The notes below the pieces were generated by a model. That model did no database searches. It saw nothing but the letters and a program-made list of their open reading frames with translations, and had not been told where the DNA came from. Shown here piece by piece: positions 26,318 through 50,500 of a stretch of DNA of 64,000 bases. The DNA is from Clostridia bacterium (GTDB taxonomy: Bacteria > Bacillota > Clostridia > Christensenellales > CAG-138): positions 15,183 through 79,182 of the forward strand of contig JAFXVP010000072.1 in the NCBI GenBank assembly GCA_017524445.1, in the 5' to 3' direction. The position numbers and the translations under genes were made by a program. How positions within the stretch are numbered: the first letter of the stretch is position 1; each line of letters opens with the position of its first letter.

Positions 26318-26343
26318 TGAATTGAAACTGCCATTCTGAGGCA

Positions 26344-26374
26344 ATGCACCCCGGGCGAGATCCGGGTGCATTTT
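26344..26374. repeat. REP-like hairpin repeat, copy A (ATGCACCCCGGGCGAGATCCGGGTGCATTTT)
   Basis: Inverted arms TGCACCC(C)GG / CCGGGTGCA. The same element recurs at 47105-47166 and twice at 61514-61600. Confidence 0.8.
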
Positions 26375-26416
26375 GCATTTTTGAGTGCATTCGCGGACGG
26401 TTGCCCGGTTCGCGAA

Positions 26417-33416: not shown

Positions 33417-33713
33417 TTATTCGATCGTCAGAATGTCGGAGAATCCGGTCACTTCGAAGATCTCCATGATGATCTCGTTTACGTGAACGACCTTCATGCT
33501 GCCCTGCCGGTTCATCGTCTTCTGCGCCGAAAGCAGTACGCGAAGGCCTGCGGACGAAATGTAATCCAGCTTTTCAAAATCGAAGGTCAGTTCCTCGACG
33601 CCGTTCAAAGTGTCTTTGAGCGCCGCTTCCAGTTCCGGCGTGTTCATGGTGTCCAGTCTGCCTTCGAGCGCGATCGTCAGCGCGTTTTCGTTTCTCGTTT
33701 GTTGAATGGTCAT
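33417..33713 (-). CDS. STAS-domain anti-sigma-factor antagonist (SpoIIAA/RsbV-like)
   Basis: 98 aa, RBS GGGAGGAG. LDYISSAGLRVLL carries the phosphorylatable Ser motif (DxISSAGL). Confidence 0.85.
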   Translation of the reverse strand: MTIQQTRNENALTIALEGRLDTMNTPELEAALKDTLNGVEELTFDFEKLDYISSAGLRVLLSAQKTMNRQGSMKVVHVNEIIMEIFEVTGFSDILTIE

Positions 33714-33984: not shown

Positions 33985-35388
33985 ATGGACGGAAGCATTA
34001 CCGCCACGTCGTCGGGCAATTTGACAGCGTTTTTCACAAATATGATCGGCACGCTTGCCGTAATCCTCGTGCTTGCCGCATTCATCAGCGGCAGCGAACT
34101 CACCTCCAGATTTTTCGGTTCCAAAAACAGTTGGAAATATTCGCTCTTCGTCGGTGTGCTCGGAGGTGTTTTCGGCATTTACGGCACGATGACCGGTCTC
34201 GAATTGAACGGCGCGATCATTTCGGTCCGCGACATCGGACCGATGCTTGCCGGCTTCACGGGCGGTCCGCTCGGCGGATTGATCGCCGGCGTCATTGCGG
34301 GCGTTCACCGGTACTTTGTCGGATCAAAGGACTCGTCGACCGCACAGCTCGTCACGTATGCCTGCATCATCGCGACGGTCTGCATCGGCGTCATGTGCGG
34401 CATTCTCTCCCGGAAGTTCCGCGAGAGGCTGAAAAAGCCGTGGTGGGCGTTTCTCATCGGCGTTCTGATGGAGATCTTCCATCTATCGCTCTTTCTTCTC
34501 ATCGTCAAGCCGTTCGACACGGCGCTCGGTGTTGTGAAAGCGATCTTTCTGCCTTTCATTCTGGTCAATGCCACGGGCTTTACGCTGATGATCACGATGA
34601 TCGTTTATCTGGAAAAGCAGCGTGCGATCGCCCTCGAACGCTCGCGTCTCAAAACGGAGCTCGAGGTCGCGACCGTCATTCAACGCTCGCTGCTGCCGCC
34701 CATTACAAAGGATTATCCGAACAGGTCCGAAATCGGGATCGCCGCTTCCATGGATCCGGCGAAGGAGGTCGGCGGCGATTTTTACGACGTCTTCTTCGTG
34801 GATCCGAATCGGCTCGCTTTTGTCGTTGCGGACGTTTCCGGCAAGGGGATCCCCGCTGCGCTGTTTATGGCAACGTCAAAGACCTCCATTCAAAACTGCG
34901 TGCGCGACTATCCCTCCCTGTCCGAAGCCGTCGGGATCGCAAACGACAGCCTCTGCCGCAACAATACGGCACAGATGTTTGTGACCGCATGGATCGGCGT
35001 TCTGCACCTTCAGACCGGTGAACTGACATTTGTCTGCGCCGGGCACAATCCGCCTGTGTTGATCTCAAACGGAACAACGGAATTCATCAAGCGCAGAAGC
35101 GGCTTCGTGCTTGCCGGAATGGAGGGTATGAAATACCGTGAACAAACCCTGACGCTGAAAAAAGGCGATTGTCTGTTCCTCTATACCGACGGCGTAACGG
35201 AAGCCGAAAACGGCTTGCACGCGCTTTTCGGAGAGGAACGCCTTGCCGTCAGTCTTGCACATGCAAGCACAAAAACGCCGGATGAGATCCTATCCGACGT
35301 CAAGACCGCCATCAGCGCACACGTCGGCGGCGCCGAGCAGTTTGACGATATCACAATGCTGTGCATCAACTATCGGGGCGCGGAATAA
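33985..35388 (+). CDS. Membrane-anchored PP2C-type (SpoIIE-family) serine phosphatase with 5TM LytS/YhcK-type sensor domain
   Basis: 467 aa. The N-terminal ~200 aa are multi-pass hydrophobic. The C-terminus has GGDFYDV...FVVADVSGKGIPAALFM...LYTDGVTEA...DDITMLCI, the SpoIIE/PP2C motifs. Confidence 0.85.
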   Translation: MDGSITATSSGNLTAFFTNMIGTLAVILVLAAFISGSELTSRFFGSKNSWKYSLFVGVLGGVFGIYGTMTGLELNGAIISVRDIGPMLAGFTGGPLGGLIAGVIAGVHRYFVGSKDSSTAQLVTYACIIATVCIGVMCGILSRKFRERLKKPWWAFLIGVLMEIFHLSLFLLIVKPFDTALGVVKAIFLPFILVNATGFTLMITMIVYLEKQRAIALERSRLKTELEVATVIQRSLLPPITKDYPNRSEIGIAASMDPAKEVGGDFYDVFFVDPNRLAFVVADVSGKGIPAALFMATSKTSIQNCVRDYPSLSEAVGIANDSLCRNNTAQMFVTAWIGVLHLQTGELTFVCAGHNPPVLISNGTTEFIKRRSGFVLAGMEGMKYREQTLTLKKGDCLFLYTDGVTEAENGLHALFGEERLAVSLAHASTKTPDEILSDVKTAISAHVGGAEQFDDITMLCINYRGAE

Positions 35389-35495
35389 TGCCGCTTTACG
35401 GCAAATGCAATCAGAGATAAAGCAGGGCGAAGCTGAATGGCTTCGCCCCGATGTTTTGTGCTGCATGATCCGTTGTTGATCGTTTCGGGATCGTA
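35372..35495. repeat. Direct repeat, left copy (SpoIIE 3-prime end + terminator hairpin + degenerate remnant of the small-peptide gene 3-prime end)
   Basis: Aligns with 47193-47322. atc(g/a)gggc(g/c)cggaataatgccgcttt(a/t)cggcaaatgcaatcagagataaagcagggcgaagc... continues to ...gttgatcgt(t/g)tcgggatcgta. The minus-strand remnant encodes ..PYDPETINNG with no start codon. Confidence 0.85.
35425..35448. terminator. Hairpin terminator shared by the convergent SpoIIE and MATE-kinase genes
   Basis: GGGCGAAGC-tgaatg-GCTTCGCCC. T-rich flanks are weak on both sides. Confidence 0.5.
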
Positions 35496-35520
35496 CGGAC
35501 GTTTCGCGTGCCCGATGCTT

Positions 35521-37251
35521 CTAAAGCCGGATATACGTTTTGTTCAGTCCGATCAGGCGTTTATAGTCCACGCTCGCCGCGACGGAGCGGATCATGCCGA
35601 TGTGATCCGTCGCATACGGCTCGGGCTGCTCGCAATGGTAAACGAGCGGATCAAACGGACTGCCGTCGTCGGTTACCGACAGCAGCAGATCATTTCCGGA
35701 AGCGCGGACGATCACATCAAAACGTACCGTCTTTCCGGCGGAATGTTCGATCGAATTCACCATAATCTCTTCTGCGGCGATCGCGACAAACATGGCTTTC
35801 TTTTCGTCAGCGCCGCCGCCGAGCAGCGATTTATGGATCTGCTCAACGGCCTGCGATACGGTGCTGCGGTCTGCGGAAAGCTGCAGCAGTTCCTTCGGAA
35901 GCTCCTTCGACGGTTCCTGTTTCCGGCGCACGTTTTCGATGCGGAACAGCCGTCCCTTCTCCAGGATCAGCACAGCAAGGAGCGTAAAGAGCTCCGCCGC
36001 GGAAAACGCCGTCCATACGCCGTCGATCCCCCAAATCATGCTCAAAAGCAATGCGCAAGGCACGATTGCCGCAAGCCCGTTCACCACTGAGATCACCGTT
36101 GACAGCCAACGTTTTTCCACTGCCATATAGAAATACAGCAGCAGGAAGTTCAGTGCCGTTCCCGCAAGACTGAACGCGAAAATCCGCACCGCGCGGATGA
36201 CCAGCGCACGCACGGCTTCGTCGTGCATGCCGAACAGGGATGCGATCAGATTCGACGCCGCTTCCAGCAGGATCAGCCCGACCGCCACACAGATCGCAAG
36301 CACGATCCTCGCGCGGCGAACCGCGATCCGCGCGCCGGTAAAGTCCCGTTCGCCGTAGTACACGCCGAGGATCGGGACCATGGTCTGCGCCGAGCCGGAA
36401 ATGAACATGGACATGAACATCAGGCAGTTCGTGCAGACCGAGAATGCCGCAACGCCCGTCGCGCCCTGCAGCCGCGAAACAAGGTTGTTGATGAACATGA
36501 TCTTGATCGCGACCAGTCCGACGCCGAGCGCGGTCGATACGCCGGTCTTCAGGATCATCGGGATCTCGCGAACCGCGCCTTTCAGCCGGAATTTGACGGT
36601 GCGCCGTTTGGTCAGCAGATAGAACATCGACAGTCCGAGACCGATGATGTTGGCAAGCACCGTCGCGAGCGACGCCCCTCCGATGCCCATATTGAAGAAG
36701 TGAATGAAGATCACATCAAACACAAGGTTCAGAAGATTCGCGGAAATGACCGCGATCGACGTGATCTTTACACATCCCTCGGCACGCATCAGATGGCAGA
36801 GTGCGGTCAGAAACAGCATGATCGGCGTACCCCAGACGAGGTTGCGATAGTACGCGGTGACATATTCCGTTGCCGAGGCGTCGCTGATCAGAACGCGGGC
36901 GATGCTGTTCATAAAGATCGCCTGCAGCACGGCAAACAGTACGCCCGTACCGATCACGAGCATCAGCATCGCCGTATACAGGCGGTTTGCCCGCTCGGTC
37001 TCTCTTCGTCCGAGTGCGACCGAAATGCAGCTTGCGGCGCCGAGTCCGAACAGCGCTCCGAACGTGGAGATCAGCTGCGAGATCGGAACACAGGCATGCA
37101 CCGCTGCAAGGCACGTTGTCCCGAGCAGCGAACTGACAATGATCTCATCGACAATGAACGACAGCGACGCCGACATCATGTTGAGGACCGTCGGGAAAAA
37201 GAATTCCCGGAATTTTCGGTCGATCAGTTTTCGATTGCGAATCAGTTCCAC
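35521..37251 (-). CDS. MATE-family efflux transporter fused to a C-terminal RsbW/SpoIIAB-like anti-sigma serine kinase (HATPase_c) domain
   Basis: 576 aa. GTG start with an AGGAAGGA RBS, 22 nt after the NRPS stop. The N-terminal ~440 aa form 12 hydrophobic segments typical of MATE. The C-terminus has AAEEIMVNSIEHS (N-box), VTDDGSPFDP (G1-like) and MIRSVAASVDYKRLIGLNKTYIRL. Confidence 0.7.
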   Translation of the reverse strand: MELIRNRKLIDRKFREFFFPTVLNMMSASLSFIVDEIIVSSLLGTTCLAAVHACVPISQLISTFGALFGLGAASCISVALGRRETERANRLYTAMLMLVIGTGVLFAVLQAIFMNSIARVLISDASATEYVTAYYRNLVWGTPIMLFLTALCHLMRAEGCVKITSIAVISANLLNLVFDVIFIHFFNMGIGGASLATVLANIIGLGLSMFYLLTKRRTVKFRLKGAVREIPMILKTGVSTALGVGLVAIKIMFINNLVSRLQGATGVAAFSVCTNCLMFMSMFISGSAQTMVPILGVYYGERDFTGARIAVRRARIVLAICVAVGLILLEAASNLIASLFGMHDEAVRALVIRAVRIFAFSLAGTALNFLLLYFYMAVEKRWLSTVISVVNGLAAIVPCALLLSMIWGIDGVWTAFSAAELFTLLAVLILEKGRLFRIENVRRKQEPSKELPKELLQLSADRSTVSQAVEQIHKSLLGGGADEKKAMFVAIAAEEIMVNSIEHSAGKTVRFDVIVRASGNDLLLSVTDDGSPFDPLVYHCEQPEPYATDHIGMIRSVAASVDYKRLIGLNKTYIRL

Positions 37252-37273
37252 TGTATCCTTCCTTTCTGTTCCG

Positions 37274-40200
37274 TCAGCTGAAGTATCCGAGTCCTTTCAG
37301 CGCGCGGATAAATCGGTCGATATAGTCCCATGTGGTGACCGGCCAGTTGAATCCGAGCCGGTACAGTACCTGCATGGTATATTCGTTGTGCCGCGGCATC
37401 ATGACCGTCTCCCGGCTGCCCGGCGCGTTGCGATACGCCATGATGCTCGTCAGTTCCTGCGCTTTTTTCGGATCGCTTTCCGCCTCGGCGAACGCTTTTG
37501 CAAACACGTCGCTTTCCACGGCACGGACCGGCATTCCGAGCTTGCCCATCTCGCTGAAGATCGCGTTGAACAGAACCTGCTGATGGTTGAACGCATGGAA
37601 GACGCGGCTCTCCTCCGGCGTGCGCGAAAGCGCAACGACAGCTTCGGCGACCGCATCGATCGGCGAAAACTCCATCGTCAGGTCCGCCTGTTCGTAGGAA
37701 TAGCAGCCGAGCATCTGGAATGCGTGCAGTCTGCCCATAGCGGAATTTGTCTGGAAATTGGCCTGGAATTCACCGTCCGAATAGCGCGCCGCAAGGTTGC
37801 CGAGACGGATGATCTTTGTGTGCAGCCCGTCTCTTGCGGCGGCTTCGAGCACCGCGCGCTCGGCAAGGAATTTCGAACGGACGTACTTGTTGTCCAGCAG
37901 CTGCCCGAAGTACAGCATCTGTTCGCGCACGACAAGCCCGTCTGGGATCTTGTCCTTATAGATCGACGTTACCGTGCTCATGGTGGACGTCTGTACCAGC
38001 GCCGCGCCTGTACGCTTGCAGAAGGAGATCAGGTTCCTTACGCCGCCGAGATTGACGTCCTCGAGCAGCGTACCGCTTGAGAAATGCTTGACCACGGCGG
38101 CGCAGTTGATCACCGTCTGCACCTCGCCGGGTCCGATCGGATCCAGCACATGCGCGTCGGTCACATCGCCGTCGATCGGCAGGATGCGGGTGCCGAACAG
38201 TTCTTCATAGCTGTTGTCGAAGTAGTAGAACAGCATGCCCTTGAGCCGCTTGACGGCGTCTATTCCCCGACGGCCGCGCAGCAGACAATAGATCCTGCCG
38301 GTTTCCTTTTCGATCAGTTCGTGTACCACGTGGATCCCGAGGTATCCGGTCGCGCCGGTGACCAGCACGTTTCCGAGTTCTCTGCGCGTACCCGCACGGA
38401 AGCGTTCGAGCGTATTCTCGTCAAGCAGCTTCCGGATCTCCGTATAGTCATATCCGGTGATTTCGGGATCGTCCTCCTCGACCGTCTTGACTGTGTCCGT
38501 ATCGCCGAGATGCTGTGCAAGCTCGCGCGCGGTCGGATGCGCGAACACGTCCGCGAACGAAACGGCAAGCCCCTGTTTCTGCGCGGCTATGATGACGTTT
38601 GTAACGAGCAGCGACGTACCGCCGAGCTCGAAGAAGTTCTCCTCAGCGCCGACGTCCTCGACGTGCAGCAGTTCGGAGAAGATGCGGCAGATCGCTTTTT
38701 CCGTCTCGCTTGCGGCTTTCGCGCCGTTGTCCGCACGGTAAAGCTGCGGCGCCGGCAGATTCTTGAGATCCAGTTTGCCGTTCGGCGTGATCGGCATCGC
38801 GTCGAGCTGCATATATGCGGTGGGGACCATGTAATTGGTCAGCGTTCTGCCGAGCTCCTTTTTCAGCGCGCCGATATCCACCGCGTGATCCGCCGTGAAC
38901 CATGCGCACAGATGCTCGATGCCGTTGATCTTGTCGATCTTGACCGCGCACCGCGTGATGCCCGGCACCGCGGAAAGCACCGATTCCACTTCCCCAAGCT
39001 CGATGCGCAGACCGCGCAGCTTGATCTGATTGTCCTTTCTGCCGAGGATCTCGACGTTGCCGTCCTCGGTCCACCGCGCGAAGTCGCCCGAGCAGTAAAT
39101 GCGGATCCCCTGATACGTGCGGAACCGTTCCGCCGTCATTTCGGGCAGGTTGTGATAGCCCTTTGCAACGCCCGGTCCGCCGATGTACAGCTCGCCGACG
39201 ACGCCGACGGGCACCTCGTTGCCGTCCGAATCCACAATGAACTCGGTCACGTTCAAAAGCGGCCTGCCGACCGATACGCTTGCGTCGTGCGTCAGCTCAC
39301 GGATGTTGCACGAAACCGTGATCTCCGTCGGTCCGTATGTGTTGAAGATGCGCGCGGAAAACGCCGTCTGCAGACGTTTCAGGAGACTGTCCGGATATTT
39401 TTCGCCCGCGCACACGATGATGCGGCAGCGGGACAGCGCTTCCCGGAACGCTTTCGACTCCAGCAGCGTCATCAGGCGCGACGGCGTTGCCTGGAACAGA
39501 TCGGTATTCGTCTCGGTCATGCGGACGGCGAGCGCGTTCGCGTCGTTGCATTCGTTATCGCTTGCGAGCACAAAGGTCAGGCCGTTGAACAGCGTGACGG
39601 CAAACTCCTTGACCGACATATCGAACGACAGCGTCGTGACGCCCGTGATGGTGTGCCCTTCCTCGCAATAGGCGTGCACCAGGATATTTGCCGGCGCGTC
39701 GGTCATGTAATTTACGATGCCCCGGTGCGTGAGCATAACGCCCTTCGGCTTGCCCGTAGAACCGGAGGTATAGATCAGATACGCAAGATCGTCCGGCGCG
39801 ATCGCGACGTCCGGTCTTGTTTCGTTCGGCTCCTCCAGCAGCGTTTCCGCGTCGACCGCGGGCATATCGGTGAAACGGGCGAGCCGCTCGCGGTCGGTGA
39901 TGACCAGCGACGCGCCGGAATCCTCAAGGATGTGCCGCACACGTTCGACGGGATACTTCGGATCGCACGGAATGTACGCGCAGCCCGACTTCAGCACCCC
40001 GAACAGGGAGATGATCACGCGCGAAGTCCTCGGCAGCAGCAGCACGATCTTTCCGCCCGGCCGCACGCCGCGCGCGATCAGCGCGTTGGCAACGCGGTTT
40101 GCCGCCGCGTCAAGCGCCGCATAGGTATAGCTTGCGTCGCAGGCGATCAGCGCAGGATGATCCGGCGTCTGCTTTGCAAAGCGTTCGAGCCCCGACTGAT

Positions 40201-43200
40201 ACCGTGTCTCCGGAGCGATGACGGTCGGATCGTCCACCCTGCGGAAAGCATCGATCTGTGCCTGCCGCGATTCATCGAGCAGGGAAATGCTGCGGAGCTT
40301 TCTTCTGCCGAACGCCGCGAGTTTTTCGACCGTGATCGCGTAGGAACGAACGAATTCGCGCATCAGACCTGCCGAATACAGCGCGTCGTTGTATTCAACG
40401 GCGATCTGCGGTCCTTCCTTGCCGTCCTCAATGCGTACGGTCATCTTGAATTTCGCGCGGTCGGGTTCCAGTCCCTCTGCTTTCAGTATGCCCGGGATCG
40501 CAGGTTTTTCGAGGATCCCGCGCTGGTATTCATACATGACCTGCGGGGTGAAGCCCCAGTCGGCGGCGACCTGTGCGAACGGATGGTTCTCGTGCGCGAT
40601 CGCCTGCTCGAGGCCGTCCGAAACGGTTTTGATGAATTCATCCACGGTCCCGTCGTCCAGCTTTGCGGCAAGCGGCAGCGTATTGACGAACATACCGAAC
40701 GTATCGGAGAAGCGGATATCGCTTCGTCCGCTGCTGATCGTGGCGATGTATACGTGATCGGAGGCGGTCAGCCGCGCAAGCGTATAGTCGAGCGCCGCAA
40801 GCAGGAAGCCCGCCTCGGTGACCCGGCAGCGCGTACAAGCACTTTGCAGGTCTTTTTCACGCAGCGGATGCACTGCATACGCCTTTTTGCTGCCCATGCC
40901 CTTGCCGGGGATGTCGCCGGTAAGTTCGGTTGCGGATTCATAGTCCGCAAACAGATCATTGAGATACGCCTTTGTTTCCTCCGCCTGCGTGCCTTCGAGC
41001 AGCGCTTTCTGCTCGCGGGCAAAGAACGCATACGACGCGCTTTCCCTCTCCACGGCAGCGCCGTTCAGCGCTTCTCCGAGATCCTTCAGGAAGATGTTGA
41101 ATGAGAATCCGTCGAACACAAGATGATGGAAATCGGAGAACAGCCGCACCGCGGCGGGCGTTCTGACAACCGTGAAACGGAACAGCGGACCCTGTCCGAG
41201 GCGGAACGGCATCACAAACGTTTTGCGCAGCGCCTCGCATTCCTCCTCCGTCATCTCGCGGACCGGGATCTTGTACGGTTCGGTATTTCGCACCGACGTG
41301 ACGCGATCGTTGCGGATCTCGAAGTGAACGTCAACGGACCGGTGCGCGTCGATGACGCTGCGCACGGCTGCAGCGAGCGCGTCCGGATCGGTCGACGGAT
41401 CAAAGGTCAGCACCGACGGGATATTATACGCCGTGCTGTCCGGCTCCTTCATGCAGTCCACATAGATGCCCTGCTGCGCGGCGGAAAGCTCCGCTTCGGT
41501 GATCTCCTCGGTCTGCGCGTTCTGCGCGGAAGACCCGTTCATCCATTGATCCAAAATCCGGTCTTCGATCTCGCGGATCGTGATCGTGCCGAGCTCCTTT
41601 GCGTCGAACTTGACGTCGAACCGCTTGAACAGCCACGCGGACAGCCGGATCGTGCCGAGACTTGTGAGTCCCAGCCACGCAAGCTGCGTGCCGAGCGGCG
41701 GATGCGGGGCGTTGATCGCCTGTCCAACGATCTCCCGCAGGGCTGCTTCCAGCGCGTTGTCCTCATGCGTATCGTCCTCCGCACCGACTGCGGGCAGTTC
41801 GGGCTTCGGCAGTGCGCGGCGGTTGACCTTGCCGTTCGGCGTCAGCGGAATCTTGTCAAGCTGTACGAAAGCGGCGGGGATCATATACGGCGGCTTGCGC
41901 TCTCCGATATATTGCTTCAGCGCTTCCGTGTCGATCGGCGCGTCTCCGACCACATATGCCGCAATGGATTTGCCGTCCGCGCCGAGATCGATCGCGTTGA
42001 CCGTTACGTCGCGCACTGACGGGAATTCGCGAATGACGGCTTCGATCTCGGTCAGTTCGATACGGAACCCGTGAATTTTCACCTGTCCGTCACGACGTCC
42101 GATAAACTCGATCTCGCCGTCCGAACGGTAGCGCACGATGTCGCCGGTGCGATAGGCGCGCGCCCAGATACCGCCGTCAAACGGATTGTCGATAAAGACC
42201 TCCGCCGTCTTTTCCGGACGGTTCAGGTATCCGTCGCCGACGTTCGGTCCCGCGATCAGCAGCTCGCCGATCGCGCCTGCAGGCAGCTGATGCCCGAAGG
42301 CGTCGACGACATAGCATTTGACGTTTTCAAGCGGTCTGCCGATCGGGATGTTCTCTTCCGATCTTGTCACCGGGTAGATCGTCGAAAAGATCGTGCACTC
42401 GGTCGGTCCGTAAGCGTTATAGAACGCGTACGTCTTCGGCGGCTCCATGGAAGCAAGCTTTTCGCCGCCCACCGAAAGCGCCCTCAGATACGGATTTTCC
42501 ATCTCTGCGGCGAACTGCCGTCCGACCTGCGTGGTCAAAAATGCGAGCGAAACGCGGCGCTCCGCAAAGAAGCGGTTCATCGTCTCCAGATCATAGCGCA
42601 TCTCCTCGGGAACGATGCATACCGCCGCGCCGGAACACAGCGCCGGATACATATCCATCATGCACGCGTCGAATCCGTAGGACGCATACTGTCCGACGCG
42701 GTCGAGCGGCGTCAGCGCATAGAAGCGGCGGTACCATTCGATGAACGAAACAAGGTTCGCGTGAGTCAGCCGCACCCCCTTCGGCACGCCGGTACTGCCG
42801 GACGTATAGAGCAGAATAAAGAGATCCTCCGGCTTGCAAACAGCTTTCGGCGTACCGTCCGGAAGCGCTTCGATCTCCCGAATCGTCAGCCGCCGGCCGT
42901 CGTATTCCGTGATGTGTTCGCCAAGCTCTTCTGTCGTGATCAGAAGCTTTGCCGCGGCGTCACGCACCATAAAGTTCAGGCGCTCCGCCGGATACGTGCC
43001 GTCAAGCGGCTGATAGGCGCAGCCGGCCTTGAGCGCGCCGAGGAACGTGATCGCCTGATACCGTCCGCGCGGGATCAGCACGGATACGACGTCGCCTCTG
43101 CCCAGACCGAACTGCTGCAAATGCGCGGCAAGCGCGTCCGTTCTGCGGTCAAGCTCCGAATAGGTCATCTCGCCGTCCTCGTCGATCACCGCGACGGACG

Positions 43201-46180
43201 AGCCGAACTGTTCGGCTGCCCGGTTGAACATGGAAACAACGGTCGCGCCCGTATCATAGTCAAAGGTGCGGTCGTTCCACGACGCAAGCAGCTTCCGCTG
43301 CGCTTCGCTTGCCGGCGAGATCTCGCCGACCGTCTCGCAGCGCAGCATCCGCACGAGCACGTTCTCGTAACTTTCGAGGATCGTACGGATCATTTCTTCG
43401 GAATAGAGATCGCTGCGGTATTCGGCGCGGATGTTGTAAACGCCGCCCTGCTTGTACATCTGGATCGTGATCTTCTCACCGGTCGCGTTGTCCATCAGCG
43501 GGATCCGCTCGATCGGCGTACCGGAAAATCCGCCGACGTTCAGCACGTCACCCTGATACACAAACAGCAGATCGCTGGTCACGCCGGTCTCCGCGGCCAG
43601 ATCGGCGAACGGATACGCGTCGTGCGCCATGCAGCCGAGCATCTGTGCCTTCGCGTTTTCGAGGTATGTGACGATCGGCATCTGTGCGTCGAACGAGGAC
43701 CACACCGGCAGCGTCCGCACCAGCATAGCCACCGTCCGCGCGGTGCGCAGGGAATCACGCCCGTTATAGATCGTTGCGAACAGGGCTTCTTTCGCGCCGG
43801 AGAACAGCCCCGCGCAAAGGCCGAACGCGGCTGTTGCGTAGATGTTTTCGGTAACGCCCGCCTCCCGGCAGAACGCCTCGGCTTCCACCGCTTCCAGCGC
43901 AAGCGCACGCTCAACCGTTCCGAACGACGGCGTCGGCTCGTAACGGTCACGGATCGGCAGACTGTCGAGATCAAGCGCGCCGAAGATGTTCAGATACCAG
44001 TCTTTTGATTCGTCATAGCTCTTTGCGCGCTTTTCCGCCTCGTCCTCCGCCACCTCGAAACCGCCGTAGCGCTCCGTCTCCGGCGTTTCGCCGTTGTATG
44101 CGCGTTCCAGATCGTTGAGCAGCACCAGCATGGAGGAGCCGTCGAAAATGATGTGATGGAAATCCATGAACAGATAGGTCGTCCGTTCCGTCCGGATGAC
44201 GCGAATGCGGAACAGGCGGTCCTTCAGAAGTCGGAACGGCTGCATCAGCTTCGGCTGCAGCGCCGCAAACTGCGCCTCCGTCATTTGTTCGACCGCCTGT
44301 GTATACGGTTCTTCGTCGTTGCGGTTCTGCCACGGGTTGCCCTCCGTGTCCACCGTAATACGCATCTTGATGAACGGATGCGCCGTCACCGCCGCTTCGA
44401 CCGCACGGCACAGACGTCCCGGTTCGATCGTCGGATCGAGCTTCAGCAAAATCGGATTGTTGTAAACCGCTTCCCCGTCATGCTGCATCGACGCGACATA
44501 GATGCCGATCTGTGCGTCGGACAGCGGATAACGGTCCTTCTTTTCGCGCAGCTTTGCCTTGCCGCTGCCGATGAGAAGCGCGGCGATCGCACGCGGCGTT
44601 CTTGCCGCATAGATCTGTTTGGTCGTAAGATCCAGTTCCGGGCATGCCGTTGCAAGCTTCATGACACGGATGCTGTCGCCGCCCAGCCGGAAGAAATCAT
44701 CGTCGATCCCGATCGGACGGACGCCGAGACTCTCCTCAAACGCACGGCACAGCAGCGCTTCCGTTTCGTTTTCAGGCGCGGCATAGTCCGCGCGCTGCTC
44801 CGCAAAGTCGGGATCCGGCAGAGACTTGCGATCCTCCTTGCCGTTACTGTTCAGCGGCAGTGTGTCAAGATGCACATAAACAGACGGAACCATGTAGGCG
44901 GCAAGCCGCTTTTCGAGCGCGGCGCGGATCACCTCTTCGGTCTGCGTCCCGGTAAACCATGCGCACAGGAGCGTCTGCCCGTCCGGTGAACGAACGCCCT
45001 TGACGACCGCGGTGTCGACGCCGTCGACCTCGCGCATTGCCATTTCGATCTCGCCCGGTTCTACGCGCTGCCCGTTGATCTTCAGCATCCAGTCCTTGCG
45101 GTTGATGTACACCAGATTCCCGTCCGGCAATTCTTTCAGAATGTCGCCCGTATGCAGCCAGCCGTCGCGATAGAGCTTTGCGGTTGCGTCCGGATCCTTG
45201 AAATATCCCTTTGTAAAGACGCCGCGGACGCACATTTCCCCTTCCTCGCCCTTCGGAACGGGGTTGCCGTCTTCGCCGAGGATGCACCACTCGATGTGCT
45301 CCTTCGGAATGCCGACCGGCGTCGTTTCGAACGGCTGTTCCACAAGATAGGCGCACAGCGTGCCGAGCGTTTCGCTCATACCGTAGTTGTTCCAGAGCTT
45401 ATAACCGTCCTTGCCGTACTGCCCGGTCAACCGCTCGCTGCCGGTAAACACGAGTCCGAGCGTAGTCGAACGGTTGTGGAAATTCCGAAGTACGGCGGGA
45501 CTGATAAACGCTACCGTGATGCCGTGCCGCTCGATATAATCCTCCAGAAGGCGCACGTCGCGGTTCGTTTCATGGCTGATCAGATGCACCGTACCGCCGC
45601 CCATCAGTACCTTAAAGACCGACATGCCTGCGACAAAATAGAACGGCGCCCCCATTGCCCATACCGCGGACGGTCCGTACGAGCCCGTGAACGCCTTCGG
45701 GAGCGTGAACTTTAGCCCCGCAAACGAATGCAGGATGCCCTTCGGCGCGCCTGTGGAGCCGGACGTATATAAAAGGATCGCCGTATCATCGTCGGTCGAT
45801 TCCGGGCAGAGCGCCGGATCGACCGGTTCGCACGCAAGGATCTCTTCGAGCGCGGTTTCGTCGATGATGAACGGCGCGTCGCAATGCAGCGAGATATACC
45901 GCACACGCTCCTGCGGAAAGGTATCCCCCATCGGCACGGCGATGTGTCCGGCAAGCAGGACGCCAACTTCCACAGCGGCATATTCCATCGATGCAGGCAA
46001 ACGGATCGGAATGAACGCGCGTTCCGAAAGCCCTTTTTCGAGCAGCCATGCCGCGGTCTTCCGAACAAGCGTGCCGAAGGTGCGATAATCGGTGCGGCGC
46101 GTTCCGTTTCTGTCGCAGATCGCAACCGAATCCGCAAAGGTCTCGGTCGCGGTCAGAATCTTTTCGAGATACAGGTGCAT
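37274..46180 (-). CDS. Trimodular non-ribosomal peptide synthetase, A-T-C-A-T-C-A-T-R (terminal thioester reductase)
   Basis: 2968 aa, RBS AGGAGG. Three A-domain cores (LLYTSGSTGAPKG, LLYTSGSTGVPKG, LIYTSGSTGKPKG). Carrier motifs FFRLGGDSI, GLTSLGT, FFELGGTSL. Two condensation motifs (HHIIFDGSS, HHLVFDGFS). C-terminal SDR-type reductase VLVTGATGYLGIHV (encoded near 38330-38375) continuing to the stop. Confidence 0.9.
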   Translation of the reverse strand: MHLYLEKILTATETFADSVAICDRNGTRRTDYRTFGTLVRKTAAWLLEKGLSERAFIPIRLPASMEYAAVEVGVLLAGHIAVPMGDTFPQERVRYISLHCDAPFIIDETALEEILACEPVDPALCPESTDDDTAILLYTSGSTGAPKGILHSFAGLKFTLPKAFTGSYGPSAVWAMGAPFYFVAGMSVFKVLMGGGTVHLISHETNRDVRLLEDYIERHGITVAFISPAVLRNFHNRSTTLGLVFTGSERLTGQYGKDGYKLWNNYGMSETLGTLCAYLVEQPFETTPVGIPKEHIEWCILGEDGNPVPKGEEGEMCVRGVFTKGYFKDPDATAKLYRDGWLHTGDILKELPDGNLVYINRKDWMLKINGQRVEPGEIEMAMREVDGVDTAVVKGVRSPDGQTLLCAWFTGTQTEEVIRAALEKRLAAYMVPSVYVHLDTLPLNSNGKEDRKSLPDPDFAEQRADYAAPENETEALLCRAFEESLGVRPIGIDDDFFRLGGDSIRVMKLATACPELDLTTKQIYAARTPRAIAALLIGSGKAKLREKKDRYPLSDAQIGIYVASMQHDGEAVYNNPILLKLDPTIEPGRLCRAVEAAVTAHPFIKMRITVDTEGNPWQNRNDEEPYTQAVEQMTEAQFAALQPKLMQPFRLLKDRLFRIRVIRTERTTYLFMDFHHIIFDGSSMLVLLNDLERAYNGETPETERYGGFEVAEDEAEKRAKSYDESKDWYLNIFGALDLDSLPIRDRYEPTPSFGTVERALALEAVEAEAFCREAGVTENIYATAAFGLCAGLFSGAKEALFATIYNGRDSLRTARTVAMLVRTLPVWSSFDAQMPIVTYLENAKAQMLGCMAHDAYPFADLAAETGVTSDLLFVYQGDVLNVGGFSGTPIERIPLMDNATGEKITIQMYKQGGVYNIRAEYRSDLYSEEMIRTILESYENVLVRMLRCETVGEISPASEAQRKLLASWNDRTFDYDTGATVVSMFNRAAEQFGSSVAVIDEDGEMTYSELDRRTDALAAHLQQFGLGRGDVVSVLIPRGRYQAITFLGALKAGCAYQPLDGTYPAERLNFMVRDAAAKLLITTEELGEHITEYDGRRLTIREIEALPDGTPKAVCKPEDLFILLYTSGSTGVPKGVRLTHANLVSFIEWYRRFYALTPLDRVGQYASYGFDACMMDMYPALCSGAAVCIVPEEMRYDLETMNRFFAERRVSLAFLTTQVGRQFAAEMENPYLRALSVGGEKLASMEPPKTYAFYNAYGPTECTIFSTIYPVTRSEENIPIGRPLENVKCYVVDAFGHQLPAGAIGELLIAGPNVGDGYLNRPEKTAEVFIDNPFDGGIWARAYRTGDIVRYRSDGEIEFIGRRDGQVKIHGFRIELTEIEAVIREFPSVRDVTVNAIDLGADGKSIAAYVVGDAPIDTEALKQYIGERKPPYMIPAAFVQLDKIPLTPNGKVNRRALPKPELPAVGAEDDTHEDNALEAALREIVGQAINAPHPPLGTQLAWLGLTSLGTIRLSAWLFKRFDVKFDAKELGTITIREIEDRILDQWMNGSSAQNAQTEEITEAELSAAQQGIYVDCMKEPDSTAYNIPSVLTFDPSTDPDALAAAVRSVIDAHRSVDVHFEIRNDRVTSVRNTEPYKIPVREMTEEECEALRKTFVMPFRLGQGPLFRFTVVRTPAAVRLFSDFHHLVFDGFSFNIFLKDLGEALNGAAVERESASYAFFAREQKALLEGTQAEETKAYLNDLFADYESATELTGDIPGKGMGSKKAYAVHPLREKDLQSACTRCRVTEAGFLLAALDYTLARLTASDHVYIATISSGRSDIRFSDTFGMFVNTLPLAAKLDDGTVDEFIKTVSDGLEQAIAHENHPFAQVAADWGFTPQVMYEYQRGILEKPAIPGILKAEGLEPDRAKFKMTVRIEDGKEGPQIAVEYNDALYSAGLMREFVRSYAITVEKLAAFGRRKLRSISLLDESRQAQIDAFRRVDDPTVIAPETRYQSGLERFAKQTPDHPALIACDASYTYAALDAAANRVANALIARGVRPGGKIVLLLPRTSRVIISLFGVLKSGCAYIPCDPKYPVERVRHILEDSGASLVITDRERLARFTDMPAVDAETLLEEPNETRPDVAIAPDDLAYLIYTSGSTGKPKGVMLTHRGIVNYMTDAPANILVHAYCEEGHTITGVTTLSFDMSVKEFAVTLFNGLTFVLASDNECNDANALAVRMTETNTDLFQATPSRLMTLLESKAFREALSRCRIIVCAGEKYPDSLLKRLQTAFSARIFNTYGPTEITVSCNIRELTHDASVSVGRPLLNVTEFIVDSDGNEVPVGVVGELYIGGPGVAKGYHNLPEMTAERFRTYQGIRIYCSGDFARWTEDGNVEILGRKDNQIKLRGLRIELGEVESVLSAVPGITRCAVKIDKINGIEHLCAWFTADHAVDIGALKKELGRTLTNYMVPTAYMQLDAMPITPNGKLDLKNLPAPQLYRADNGAKAASETEKAICRIFSELLHVEDVGAEENFFELGGTSLLVTNVIIAAQKQGLAVSFADVFAHPTARELAQHLGDTDTVKTVEEDDPEITGYDYTEIRKLLDENTLERFRAGTRRELGNVLVTGATGYLGIHVVHELIEKETGRIYCLLRGRRGIDAVKRLKGMLFYYFDNSYEELFGTRILPIDGDVTDAHVLDPIGPGEVQTVINCAAVVKHFSSGTLLEDVNLGGVRNLISFCKRTGAALVQTSTMSTVTSIYKDKIPDGLVVREQMLYFGQLLDNKYVRSKFLAERAVLEAAARDGLHTKIIRLGNLAARYSDGEFQANFQTNSAMGRLHAFQMLGCYSYEQADLTMEFSPIDAVAEAVVALSRTPEESRVFHAFNHQQVLFNAIFSEMGKLGMPVRAVESDVFAKAFAEAESDPKKAQELTSIMAYRNAPGSRETVMMPRHNEYTMQVLYRLGFNWPVTTWDYIDRFIRALKGLGYFS

Positions 46181-46207
46181 GATGGGAACCTCCTGAATAA
46201 GTATCTT

Positions 46208-46849
46208 TTACGGTTCATATTGTTCCGTTCGTCCCGGAAAGGGATCATAAGGCGAACAAACAGTCAGTACATGATCGTCAATCGATCGGGTGAAAAAGCG
46301 AAGCGACACGCAGTCATAGCGCGCACACCGGGCGACGACACGCGTTCCGAATGAAACACGGATCTCCTTAGGATCGAGCGAAAGTCCCGTCCCGAACAGC
46401 TTCATCAGACTCTCTTTCACGGTCCACAGCGCCGTATAAAAGCGCTCCCGATCGCCGTCCGGCGCAGCGGCAAGCTCTTCCGGCAGAAACACGCGGCGCA
46501 GCACGTCCTCTTCGAACGGACGGATCGGCTCCACGTCAATGCCGACCGGCTTATCGGACACCGCGATCGCCGCAATGCGTCCGCCGTGCGACAGGTTGAA
46601 CCAGATATCGTCACGATCGCGAAGGTACGGCTTTCCGTACGGCCCATACGCGATCTCCGCGTTTGGAACGCCTGCCCGTTTCAATCCCTCGCAAAGCAGA
46701 AGTCCCGCGCAGAGCGACAGCCGCCGGTCCCGTTCAAACCGGAACGACCGGATTTTTTGCTGACGTTCGGAAGGCATGCTGTCAAACGCGCGGCTGAACG
46801 TTCCCGGATCGGAAACCGCGTCCGCATACATCCACAGCACCACGTTCAT
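46208..46849 (-). CDS. Sfp-type 4'-phosphopantetheinyl transferase
   Basis: 213 aa, RBS AAGGAGG. GKPYLRD...FNLSHGG...VGIDVEPI...WTVKESLMKLFGTG are the PPTase motifs. 27 nt upstream of the NRPS. Confidence 0.85.
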   Translation of the reverse strand: MNVVLWMYADAVSDPGTFSRAFDSMPSERQQKIRSFRFERDRRLSLCAGLLLCEGLKRAGVPNAEIAYGPYGKPYLRDRDDIWFNLSHGGRIAAIAVSDKPVGIDVEPIRPFEEDVLRRVFLPEELAAAPDGDRERFYTALWTVKESLMKLFGTGLSLDPKEIRVSFGTRVVARCARYDCVSLRFFTRSIDDHVLTVCSPYDPFPGRTEQYEP

Positions 46850-46899
46850 GCCGACCTCCTTCGTCCGGGCGGATCGCCAAAATATATTCTTTCGAGTAT

Positions 46900-46928
46900 A
46901 TTATACAATCTAAAACGAACGGCGACAA
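46900..46928 (-). promoter_or_regulatory. Promoter of the PPTase-NRPS-MATE operon
   Basis: Minus strand: TTGTCG (46928-46923), 17-nt spacer, TATAAT (46905-46900), about 50 nt upstream of the PPTase start. Confidence 0.5.
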
Positions 46929-47026
46929 GAACTATTCTTCTTTTTCTTTCACATGATTATTTTATGGCACGATGTGGCGTTTTTTCCGGCGCGGCGAATA
47001 GCGGATAACGGTTATGAACAGCATTT

Positions 47027-47062
47027 AACCTCTTTTGACCAATCAGTCAAAAGAGGTTAATA
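47027..47062. promoter_or_regulatory. Perfect 15-bp inverted repeat (TTAACCTCTTTTGAC-caatca-GTCAAAAGAGGTTAA), operator-like
   Basis: Read directly from the sequence. No flanking T-run on either strand, so it is unlikely to be a terminator. It lies ~100 nt upstream of the NRPS-operon promoter. Confidence 0.5.
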
Positions 47063-47104
47063 TCTATGTATCAAAATAAGCGTCCCAATACGGAAAATCA
47101 CAGT

Positions 47105-47166
47105 GATTTTGATACAAATGCACCCACGACAAAATCCGGGTGCATCTTTGGATTATGGGTGCATCC
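47105..47166. repeat. REP-like hairpin repeat, copy B
   Basis: attttgatacaaATGCACCCacgacaaaatCCGGGTGCATctttggattatgggtgcatcc parallels 61514-61575. Confidence 0.75.
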
Positions 47167-47192
47167 TAAGCGAAATCTCATCTGATTATGTG

Positions 47193-47322
47193 ATCAGGGC
47201 CCGGAATAATGCCGCTTTTCGGCAAATGCAATCAGAGATAAAGCAGGGCGAAGCCAAATGGCTTCGCCCTGCTGCTTTGTGCGCTTTAACGCTTATCCTT
47301 TGTTGATCGTGTCGGGATCGTA
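47193..47322. repeat. Direct repeat, right copy (degenerate remnant of SpoIIE 3-prime end + terminator hairpin + intact 3-prime end of the small-peptide gene)
   Basis: See 35372-35495. Here gatcagggcccggaataa mimics the SpoIIE terminal codons ..tatcggggcgcggaataa, while the peptide-gene end is intact. Confidence 0.85.
47242..47273 (-). terminator. Strong hairpin terminator ending the ABC / giant-protein / peptide operon
   Basis: AGCAGGGCGAAGCC-aaat-GGCTTCGCCCTGCT, a 14-bp perfect stem. It starts 20 nt after the peptide stop and is followed on the minus strand by TTATCTCTGATT. Confidence 0.7.
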
Positions 47323-47466
47323 GTCATGCTCGTCAACGGGCGGGACCTCGTCCCATTCGCCAGCGCCGGTGATCTTCTTGAGATCCTCGAACGCGACTTC
47401 TTCCGGTTCGATCTTCATTTCTTCGGCGACCGCTTCCGGTGCCTTCTTTTCCTTCTTGCGTTCCAT
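47293..47466 (-). CDS. 57-aa precursor peptide with double-glycine-type leader (absent from the ORF track)
   Basis: Hand translation: MERKKEKKAPEAVAEEMKIEPEEVAFEDLKKITGA|GEWDEVPPVDEHDYDPDTINKG. RBS AAAGGAG 8 nt before the ATG at 47466. It lies 46 nt downstream of the giant gene and is followed by a strong terminator. V-xxx-DL-xx-I-x-GA matches the leader consensus recognised by C39 peptidase ABC exporters. Confidence 0.6.
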   Translation of the reverse strand: MERKKEKKAPEAVAEEMKIEPEEVAFEDLKKITGAGEWDEVPPVDEHDYDPDTINKG

Positions 47467-47512: not shown

Positions 47513-50500
47513 TTACGGCTGCTGTACGGGGAACACGTTAATCAGACCGACCACGTAGCGCAGGATCGCCGCCGCGTCCGCCGCGGTAACGCTGCCGTCG
47601 CCGTCGACTTCCGCATTCAGTGCGCCGCGCTTTGTGATCGTCGACAGTCCGACGATTGAGCGCAGGACGATTGCCGCGTCTGCTGCCGTGATATATCCGT
47701 CGACATTCGCGTCGCCGTACAGGATCGCTTCGAAGGTGATGCTGCCGTCCGTTGTCGCTGCTGTCAGTTCAACGACCGTTCCCTCTGTTGCAAATCCCAT
47801 TGCGCTGCCGTTTCCGAGCGTGTTTTCGGTGAACGTGATGTCCGTCTTCTCCGCTTCGCCGATCTTGGCGAACCAGAGCGTCAGCACTTCGTCGCCGTTC
47901 TCAACAAGCTGTTCGGTTTCGGACGCCCAGACTGCGGAGAGCTTGCCGTTCTGATCGTTGACCGTCCAGTCAAATGCACCTTCCGTCTTGCGTAGCACGA
48001 GGACCGCGGGATCATACTCGAGGAAGATCTGCGCGCTGCTCACATAGGAGCCGCCCTCCGGCAGATCCTCAACGTGTACGTCGTAGCGATACAGGATCTC
48101 GCCGTCGATGATCTCGTATTCGTCGTTGCCGACGACGTCTTCGCCGGCGAACGTCACGGCAGTCGGCGCTTCGGGCTGCGGCTTGGGCGTGACGGTGATC
48201 GTTGCCTGTACCGTCGTACCGGTTGCTACATGCGTCGCGTAGAGCGTCGTTGTGCCTCCGCCGATACCGAGCACCTTGCCGTCGCTGATCTGCGCGATTT
48301 CGAGGTCCTCGACCGTATATGCTACTTCGGCGCTGTTGCCGAACTTGCTGCCGAGATCCATTGCAAAGACGATATCCGCGGTTTCATCTTCCTTGACCAT
48401 GACGTCCTCGAGCGTCATGTTCATCGGCTGCGTCTGCACAAAGCAGTCATATGCAATGTCGCCGATGAATTGACGACCGGTGTAGTCGATATCATCATAG
48501 GTCTCGACGTATTCTCTCGTGACGGCGAACGAAGCGTCGATGAAGCCGTAGCGCTGCACCATTTCGATCGTGACCGGGACTGCGACGTCGATCTCGCGGG
48601 TCTCGCCCGGCTGGATCGGCGTCTCGAACGGCACGTGTACCAGCGTAAGCGCATCTTCGTCGACATCCATGATCAGGTTCTCGGGGCCCTTCCAATCGAT
48701 CGTCAGCATGTCGCCCGCATCGGACGGCGCGTTGCCGACGTTGGTGATCTCGAACGAGGCACGGAAGCCGTCGTTGGTCTGATAGGTCACGATGTTCTCA
48801 ATGCGGTAATCCGGATCGGAAAGCAGGGGCTCGGAGACGTACTCCGCCGTGTTGGTAAAGTAGACGCCCTCCTCCTTGAGCTCCTTCGTGACCGCCTTGA
48901 ACGTCAGTCCTTCAACGTTGTCGGGCATCGTATACGCGAATTCGTGGATCCTTGCGTTGTTCGGACGCAGCGCATCGGTCGATTCGATCGTGCCGATCTG
49001 CGTTTCGGTTCCGTTCTTATCCACCGCATACAGCGTCAGCATATAGCCCGGCGCCGTGGTCAGACCGTTGTTGGACGCCTTGACTGTGATGACGGTATCC
49101 TCGCCGCCGATCGGATGATCGAGCGTCAGAGCGGATGCCTCGCCGTCCTCGTTGGGCTGCCGGATTTCGATCTCCTCGGGTTCGACTGCGCCGCAGGGCT
49201 CCATCACGGTCGCAGCCAGCGTCATTTCGGTGATCACAAGCGGGTCAAAGTCGACTTCGCCGTTGTAGTTGATGCCGTCCTCGGCAGGGGTATCCGTCTC
49301 CGGAATGACCAGCTCCTGCCTGAAGCGGTTGTGGACCACCATGAGGTTCTCGCCCGTCATGGTGACGGCGAGCTCGTCGTTGAAGTATCCGTCTCTGGTG
49401 AGCTGATACGGCTTCGACCAGCCGGTGCTGCCGAGATCTGCGTCGGGCGCGTCGGCCTCCTCGTCGGTCAACACCCTGCCGCTGGAGATCAGGCTCGTTG
49501 CAAAGATCTCCTGCGAAACGGCCGCGTTCTCATCCGCCGGATCGCCGTCGACAACGGTGTCGGTCCAAAGAATGAACAAGCTGCCGTTGGCGTCCTCGAC
49601 CACGCGGTAGTCTGCGGACTGTCTGGATTCGTTGCCGTCCTTGGGTCTCAAACCGGTCTCGATGGGATCCGCGTAGGTCGAATCGCCGCCGTCGCCCTTG
49701 ATCTTCAGCGTGCCGTCCGGATTGATGCCCTGCTGCATAAGCTGCGTGACGTCGATGTAGACGACGCCTTTGTTGTCGCGGTACCAGAACAGCTTGGTGT
49801 GCGTCGCTTCCTCCTCCGTGCTGAGCTGCGCGTCCCTGGAGCGGAAGAACTGCGGCAGCGTGTCCGCCACGTTGTCGTCGGTGATGCGGATACGGTACTT
49901 CGTCTCATGCTGCTCGAAGTTGTAGACCTGCAGATACAGCTCCTTGTCTTCGTAGGTGTCGTTGCTGCCGTCCATATCCACGGTGTAGGCATAGACCGCA
50001 AGACCGTTGTAGCCGATCGCCGTGAAGTCCGGGATCGCATATGCGACCGTGCTGCCGTTCTCATCCGTGTACGTCGGACCTGCCAGCGAGCGCTGACCGC
50101 CGAAGTTTTCGATCATGTACTGTTCGTTTTCAAGATTGCCGTGGAACTCGGCAAAGTAGAAGTTGTTGAAGAGCCACCCTTCGGGAACCACTCTGCCGTC
50201 CGTATCGACGTCCTCTTCCGCGTTGTAGATCATGTAGAACACGCGGCAGTCATTGACGTACGGGTTCGCGAGCGTCGCGCCGTCCATGGTGGTGTTGCCG
50301 CTCTTGACGTAGTAGACGATCGCGTCGCCGCTGATCTTGTCGCAGACTACGGTCGGCATGCAGTCGTAATAGCCCTTCTCGACGCCGTCCTTGATGCGAT
50401 GGTCGTTGGTGATCTTGACCGGCTCGTCCATCGTGATCGAACCGTCCTCGCCGATTGTCGCAAGCGCCGCATAGACTTCCATGCTGTTCAGGTAGTCCGT

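Follow-up and report, generated by a model that had tools for sequence, protein, structure and literature searches.

How does a biosynthetic operon with no integrase or transposase gene of its own come to lie between two copies of a single gene junction? The question is raised by a stretch of 64,000 nucleotides (nt) from an uncultured rumen Clostridia bacterium (assembly GCA_017524445.1, contig JAFXVP010000072.1; the whole stretch is called the window below), in which a nonribosomal peptide synthetase (NRPS) operon is bracketed by direct repeats of ~130 base pairs (bp) that carry the convergent ends of a SpoIIE phosphatase gene and of a gene for a peptide of 57 amino acids (aa). We put at roughly 60% the explanation that the operon is a strain-variable island inserted at this SpoIIE/57-aa peptide convergent junction by one reciprocal (Campbell-type) crossover of a circle. 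Loci compared with the window are referred to by handles (L001 and so on).

A preliminary description of the window had proposed that direct repeats of ~125-130 bp bracket the NRPS island and that the SpoIIE and peptide genes have reciprocally intact and degenerate ends; alignment of the two copies and translation of their gene ends bear out both points. The features concerned are the following.

33985-35388, + strand: 5TM-5TMR_LYT + SpoIIE (PP2C) phosphatase gene, 467 aa, intact (Pfam SpoIIE 9e-50, 5TM-5TMR_LYT 7e-39)
35372-35495 (to ~35502 against the closest allele): left repeat copy, with the SpoIIE end, a hairpin and the start-less tail of the 57-aa gene
35421-35448, both strands: G+C-rich hairpin of the left copy, an inverted-repeat arm; fold -34 kcal/mol, z ~-4 on each strand
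35468-35502, - strand: remnant of the 57-aa gene tail, translating as ..RPYDPETINNG, with no start codon
47193-47322: right repeat copy, with a 17-nt remnant of the SpoIIE end, a hairpin and the intact end of the 57-aa gene
47242-47273: hairpin of the right copy, 14 bp with 10 G-C pairs, terminator-like for the 57-aa gene
47293-47466, - strand: gene for the 57-aa acidic peptide, intact, with the invariant core EDLKKITGAGEWDxVPPVDEH and a variable tail

A repeat search of the window aligned 35372-35461 with 47193-47282 (90 nt ungapped, 91% identity) and 35468-35495 with 47295-47322 (28 nt, 93% identity), the two blocks being separated by a 6-nt indel that shifts the copy spacing from 11821 to 11827. 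By blastn, the left and right copies form a single match of 131 columns (85.5%, E~7e-31). The repeat is ~124-131 bp long, beyond a threshold of 30 bp, and its 52-nt core pattern occurs exactly 2 times in the window and 0 times in 100 shuffles. The 3' end of the SpoIIE gene is intact in the left copy, with the last 17 nt of the gene lying inside the repeat, and the right copy contains ATCAGGGCCCGGAATAA, identical to that end at 15/17 positions. Reciprocally, the intact peptide gene ends in the right copy as ...HDYDPDTINKG followed by a stop codon, and the remnant in the left copy has lost its stop codon through a 6-nt deletion. On either strand the repeat hairpin has a strong predicted fold (z -4 to -5.4), and it is scored as a terminator; the left-copy hairpin is bidirectionally terminator-like and would now serve both the SpoIIE gene (+) and the island operon (-). 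No tRNA or tmRNA was found at the repeat site, and no structured RNA apart from sub-threshold ar35 matches. A longer stretch of decayed SpoIIE sequence, considered at ~47106-47192 just left of the right copy, was rejected: it is a degenerate member of a short dispersed hairpin repeat (ATTTTGATACAATGCACCCCGGGTGAAATCCGGGGTGCAT...) that also occurs at 61510-61601 (in tandem) and 26330-26375, abuts the right copy here and has no Rfam or tRNA match, so the SpoIIE remnant is only ~17 nt long.

The arrangement is not an assembly artefact, because three independent assemblies (L001/L011, L002 and L003) span both copies and others (L008-L010, L012 and L013) each span one junction. Logan contigs (k=31) L004-L007 and L014 stop inside the repeat, either 68 nt past the peptide gene or 40 nt past SpoIIE; the copies share an identical block of 35 nt, and short-k assemblies therefore break at both island junctions.

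Between the copies lie 11,697 bp that hold, by Pfam scan, exactly three genes, all on the minus strand.

35521-37251, - strand: 576-aa MATE efflux protein, HATPase_c_2 domain at its C-terminus; last gene in the operon
37274-46180, - strand: trimodular NRPS, 2968 aa, with 3 AMP-binding, 2 condensation and 3 PP-binding domains and a terminal NAD_binding_4 reductase (Pfam; order from the L001 gene table)
46208-46849, - strand: Sfp-type 4'-phosphopantetheinyl transferase (PPTase), 213 aa, first gene of the island operon (Pfam ACPS 3e-16, AASDHPPT_N 3e-9)
46900-46928, - strand: promoter-like site of the island operon, TTGTCG-17-TATAAT, within the conserved island core
46937-47192: spacer of 256 nt, lineage-specific and absent from the divergent island copy L110
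47025-47060: perfect palindrome TTAACCTCTTTTGAC-N6-GTCAAAAGAGGTTAA in that spacer, upstream of the island promoter

The segment had been described beforehand as PPTase-NRPS-MATE without an integrase or transposase. Its three genes and the lack of mobility genes stand, with two refinements: the MATE protein carries a C-terminal HATPase_c_2 domain, and the island core is smaller than the inter-repeat segment. The MatE match is strong (6e-37) and the HATPase_c_2 match borderline (4e-6; 27.2 bits against a cut-off of 27.4). Homologues of this fusion are 570-587 aa long, and an NRPS is always adjacent where the context is visible. NRPSs of gut Clostridia with a terminal reductase are said to yield peptide aldehydes, a finding attributed to Guo et al. 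2017 (Cell). The operon has its promoter-like site but no terminator of its own, and the left-copy hairpin lies ~75 nt beyond the MATE stop codon. The spacer palindrome could be an operator or an insulator hairpin. By Pfam, none of the three island genes encodes a recombinase, and none was found among the other open reading frames (ORFs) of the window that were scanned, a few short ones being left unscanned. The island also lacks a transposase, and there were no terminal inverted repeats among the inverted pairs found. Its G+C content, 0.57-0.62, is no different from that of the flanks.

If the island was inserted, the uninterrupted junction should exist elsewhere, and it was recovered in eight contigs from independent samples (L101-L104, L105, L106, L107 and L109). 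These empty sites were reached only through diverged peptide homologues, as look-ups with the exact protein gave occupied or repeat-broken contigs. In each, a giant dockerin gene and the peptide gene are followed by 84-88 nt and then by the SpoIIE gene in convergent orientation; the repeated segment is present once and the MATE, NRPS and PPTase genes are missing. The window's counterpart of the giant gene forms the right flank of the island.

47513-56338, - strand: dockerin/Calx-beta/DUF7507 surface protein, 2941 aa

For each empty contig, the blastn alignments to the left and right flanks of the window overlap by exactly the repeated segment. The convergence of the two genes on one shared terminator, which the preliminary description had deduced from the window as the ancestral state, is thus found in nature. 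L101-L103 together with L104 form a distant allele group at ~80-84% nucleotide identity. Nor does the repeat appear to be a dispersed genomic sequence, as had been conceivable at the outset: beyond its 2 copies in the window it was found only at orthologous sites in 1.47 Mb of fetched loci, and the site pattern gave 0 matches in IMG/VR and 0 in JGI metagenome contigs. The junction had no match in GenBank phages.

A third state of the locus is represented by L095-L100, in which SpoIIE is missing and the peptide gene, with the tail ..PYDPDTTKKA, has another terminator, a 46-aa ORF and the pyrG/glnA genes after it; the giant gene of these loci is nonetheless 94% identical to that of the window. 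L095 also contains 186 nt that are 100% identical to window positions 61499-61684, in the region of the dispersed hairpin repeat. The species-representative SpoIIE homologues L015-L017 (70-81% aa identity) were considered as empty sites and proved unusable, as their contexts are unrelated. In one of them, L016 (RUG13494), the peptide gene recurs at positions 9700-10010 without its 5' part: it begins at codon 27 and, together with its terminator, immediately precedes the start codon of SpoIIE. This truncated gene adjoins prophage terminase and portal genes, and ~110 nt beyond it there is another tail-like remnant (VYDHERINV). The arrangement may be either a rearrangement hotspot or a chimeric contig of a metagenome-assembled genome.

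Comparison with the empty-site alleles shows that the repeat copies are two different natural alleles. The right copy is identical to the L105 empty site at 136/137 positions, and at 111/111 in its main part (the equivalent of 35398 onward). To the left of the island, SpoIIE positions 35175-35371 are 97-100% identical to L105, compared with 88-96% to L106, L107 and L109; to the right, positions 47523-48022 are 98-100% identical to L105. On these identities, the right copy and both immediate flanks are of the resident, L105 type. The left copy is likewise L105-type (GCGCGG) left of 35384, whereas from 35398 on it is closest to L106 (95/105, versus 87/105 to L105 and to the right copy). A column-by-column comparison of alleles found nine diagnostic sites of L106 type and two of L105 type in the left copy. 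Its tail, PYDPxTINNG, is that of a natural allele class (P0004, P0007, P0009 and P0010; for example ..HPYDPDTINNG), not the resident DYDPDTINKG. From 35398 on, the left copy thus belongs to the L106/L107/L109 allele class and was probably imported together with the island. The switch between alleles falls in a short interval.

35384-35397: inferred crossover interval GAATAATGCCGCTTT, covering the SpoIIE stop codon; L105-type to its left, L106-type to its right

An insertion by a single-crossover-type event, offered earlier from the repeat structure, therefore gains support from the alleles themselves. In the sequence of events that we propose, the incoming DNA would be a circle consisting of the island and its own ~130-bp junction copy, acquired in another, L106-like lineage. 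Crossover with a resident L105-like site inside 35384-35397, at the SpoIIE stop codon, would give a left product in which the resident SpoIIE end is followed by the imported terminator and the imported peptide-tail remnant, and a right product in which the imported 17-nt SpoIIE remnant is followed by the terminator and peptide gene of the resident. Neither host gene would be disrupted, each side would have a bidirectional terminator, and the imported one would also end the island operon. The circle itself would be what recombination between the two copies in an earlier carrier releases, and the arrangement would thus be self-propagating; the predicted circle junction reads ...TCATCTGATTATGTG/ATCAGGGCCCGGAATAATGCCGCTTTACGGCAAATGC...GGGATCGTACGGACGTTTCGCG, with the 47192 side joined via one hybrid copy of the site to the 35503 side.

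A single reciprocal exchange is indicated because both allele switches lie at the same homologous position. Import of a long linear donor by double crossover is disfavoured, as the flanks are resident-type right up to the repeat, and kilobases of flanking homology give no reason for a switch at the same 26-nt edge twice. As to the enzyme, homologous recombination by host RecA would be the first choice and a site-specific recombinase supplied in trans the second. RecA is the simplest candidate because neither the island nor the scanned part of the window encodes a recombinase; an enzyme in trans is kept as an option because the crossover lies in a 17-nt block of identity and not in a 35-nt one. 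A tentative extension is that the island perpetuates itself without a recombinase, and may carry its ~130-bp 'homing' junction copy and working bidirectional terminator through cycles of RecA excision, transfer and re-integration.

The island core recurs elsewhere. Spanning 35522-46936, this core is found in unrelated flanks at 84-88% nucleotide identity: L115 has the MATE-HATPase_c_2 gene (83% aa, 84% nt identity) with a HAD hydrolase as its convergent neighbour, and L110 has the PPTase gene (87% aa, 88% nt identity). These loci are homologous to the window exactly up to the stop codon of MATE (35522) on one side and up to 46936 on the other, a point eight nt upstream from the -35 element, and the SpoIIE gene, the peptide gene and the repeat are all absent from their flanks. 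The short flanks that L110 and L115 provide for the divergent island copy show no detectable long duplication; the two may not stem from one genome. The presence of the core in unrelated flanks indicates that the cassette relocates. A more distant NRPS and MATE-HATPase_c_2 pair (L116; 54% aa identity, 70% nt identity over 10 kb) has also been kept together, and in plasmids the MATE protein has only matches below 28% identity. Among occupied strains, the island copies are 99.86-99.99% identical, which points to recent spread.

Several observations weigh against integration of a circle by a single crossover. The allele assignment draws on ~11 informative sites in ~105 nt, and the left copy differs from L106 by private changes (10 mismatches and the 6-nt deletion), so the donor allele itself is unsampled. 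The crossover maps to the 17-nt identity block (35381-35397), whereas one would expect RecA to use the 35-nt block (35399-35433), the longer of the two. Occupied sites were recovered from one host lineage and from no other; we infer the circular intermediate, and neither a circular form nor an excision junction has been observed; and L105 may in principle be an excision product instead of a site that was never occupied.

The placing of the crossover is what gives a recombinase encoded in trans its appeal. Under such site-specific integration, the ~130-bp segment would represent attL and attR, with the crossover fixed at the SpoIIE stop and the ends of the target genes carried along as in tRNA-targeting islands. 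The switch does occupy one defined place, on the left margin of the homology and in a short rather than the longest identity block. The entirely right-copy-like L105 is also what precise site-specific excision would leave, and the truncated peptide gene and terminator beside prophage genes in L016 hint that the site attracts integrating elements. We nevertheless regard this explanation as unlikely, given that no recombinase is encoded in the island or in the scanned ORFs (a few short ones remaining outside the scan), that IMG/VR viral contigs lack the site pattern and GenBank phages the junction, and that neither a tRNA nor a tmRNA marks the site. Moreover, homology extends to both sides of the crossover, and a small hairpin at that point is not conserved in alleles L101 and L107. 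The same allelic differences could instead have arisen after an in-situ duplication, with the left copy decaying, one side being replaced through recombination, or both. Duplications of this class are documented for restriction-modification genes (46-423 bp, without mobility genes, the repeats often spanning stop codons; PMC2853133), the private mutations and 6-nt deletion of the left copy fit decay, and the region of the peptide and giant genes is visibly mosaic and recombining. Decay alone, however, cannot make 9 sites and two tail residues converge on a natural allele class; the right copy, with 0/111 changes relative to L105, leaves little time for it; and later replacement would require a crossover within the leftmost 26 nt of the right copy. 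In-situ duplication is therefore improbable in our estimation.

It is highly improbable that the island is ancestral here and that the 'empty' sites arose by deletion when one copy recombined with the other. Direct repeats of 130 bp are able to mediate deletion, and by sequence alone L105 is indistinguishable from an excision product; yet at least three diverged allele classes, the distant L101 group among them, include empty sites, each internally consistent with its own flanks, and random recombination between the two copies should yield mainly left/right hybrids, of which none was seen. The near identity of island copies among carriers and the presence of the core in other flanks in L110 and L115 likewise speak against an ancestral island. 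The distribution of the two states suggests that island carriers are nested within empty-site lineages.

A single crossover of a circle shares features with several known modes of insertion. Of these, insertion with long target duplication (Nobusato et al. 2000 (Gene 259:99); Furuta, Abe & Kobayashi 2010 (NAR, PMC2853133)) comes closest: its structural hallmarks recur here with another type of cargo. The described cases, identified by genome comparison in Helicobacter, Haemophilus, Neisseria, Campylobacter and others, concern restriction-modification genes; their repeats are 46-423 bp long, unique in the genome and often placed over stop codons so that the target genes survive, they have no mobility genes, and double-strand breakage has been proposed as their common cause (PMC2853133). 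Like them, the NRPS island is an insert of less than 20 kb without integrase or transposase. The direct repeats beside it far exceed the target duplications of transposons in length, both correspond to one single-copy segment at the empty site of a related genome, and the target genes survive because a stop codon falls within the repeat. In the 64-kb window and the 1.47 Mb of loci, the repeat was seen only as these two copies and at orthologous sites. The island differs in that the cargo is an NRPS operon rather than a restriction-modification system, in its host, an uncultured rumen Clostridia bacterium, and in that its copies can be assigned to two natural alleles, pointing to an imported site copy and a reciprocal crossover instead of a resident target duplicated at a double-strand break.

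As in Campbell-type integration (the attL/attR of a prophage, or a suicide plasmid), the insert lies between two hybrid copies that switch at the same position; here, though, there are no integrase, replication or transfer genes, and the homology is only ~130 bp at ~90%. Islands that target tRNA or tmRNA genes offer another parallel, as an element-borne copy of the target restores the gene ends while the originals are displaced to the far side and leave remnants. In the present case the target is a convergent junction of protein genes, no integrase is adjacent and homology is present on both sides of the crossover. Integrase islands have a fixed crossover core in attL/attR; here one event has been mapped, to 35384-35397. 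By eye, GAATAATGCCGCTTT is unlike the Firmicutes dif consensus (Xer-dependent integrative elements, IMEX, are flanked by 28-bp dif-like sites), a comparison made without a formal search. DNA transposons and insertion sequences differ in having a transposase and terminal inverted repeats and in duplicating under ~15 bp rather than ~130 bp. Minimal mobile elements, attributed to Saunders & Snyder 2002, are said to be cassettes exchanged between conserved flanking genes in naturally transformable bacteria. The island resembles these in being integrase-free and homology-driven, with alternative contents at one site (empty, island and the L095 configuration), but theirs are double crossovers in flanking genes without duplication, whereas the island has a duplication of 130 bp and flanks that are not donor-type. 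With no recombinase, terminal inverted repeats or tRNA, the island is outside the integrase-island, transposon and tRNA-targeting classes.

The genes around the island have features of their own. The 57-aa peptide family is narrow (15 clusters, 77-98% identity), and next to its invariant core the acidic tail is hypervariable. Its motif EDLKKITGA, followed by G, resembles a double-glycine leader (D/E at -8, L at -7, I at -4, G at -2 and A at -1). Two ABC exporters lie in the same gene string as the peptide gene, at 58603-60795 (-) and 56416-58593 (-), one of them with an N-terminal Peptidase_C39 domain (E=2e-31). Judged from its motif and neighbours, the peptide may be secreted and processed, and its gene is convergent to that of a membrane 5TM-LYT sensor phosphatase. 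The gene for the 2941-aa protein is strongly mosaic between strains: compared with L105 it is 98-100% identical over the last ~500 nt and 70-86% identical beyond, and compared with L095 the pattern is the opposite. On the other side, the SpoIIE gene is divergent from a small gene.

33417-33713, - strand: STAS-domain protein, 98 aa (Pfam STAS E=5e-14), a called gene in L011

The MATE protein of the island, whose HATPase_c_2 domain is of the anti-sigma-factor-kinase-like kind, is located beside this STAS protein and the SpoIIE phosphatase, and a similar MATE-HATPase_c_2 fusion is syntenic with STAS and SpoIIE genes in L043, L048 and L049. Such synteny suggests an efflux pump equipped with a partner-switching module. 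That the fusion is a native partner of the flanking STAS and SpoIIE proteins was rejected as the reason for the layout, as the fusion accompanies the NRPS in other flanks (L115 and L116) and the SpoIIE gene of the empty-site strain L102 has no adjacent STAS gene. A functional link between the fusion and the STAS/SpoIIE pair is possible. Farther away, window positions 1-23000 hold an extracellular contractile injection system cluster with a sheath and a LysM-bearing tube, together with four large proteins, each with an N-terminal eCIS_core domain, that are likely payloads.

Collectively, these results describe a natural example of a secondary-metabolite operon that is a presence/absence polymorphism in a rumen species without an integrase or transposase, metagenomes having yielded empty and occupied sites as well as the allele from which each junction stems. 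They extend long target duplication, so far seen with restriction-modification genes, to a biosynthetic gene cluster, and, at sequence level, they furnish evidence of a single, reciprocal crossover involving an imported target copy. Cassettes of this kind would be missed by island finders that use integrases, tRNA targets or G+C deviation, and the 125-bp repeats break short-read assemblies precisely at the island junctions. If the island does cycle in a self-perpetuating, recombinase-free manner, this would constitute a general route by which gut and rumen Clostridia trade NRPS clusters without a mobility gene.

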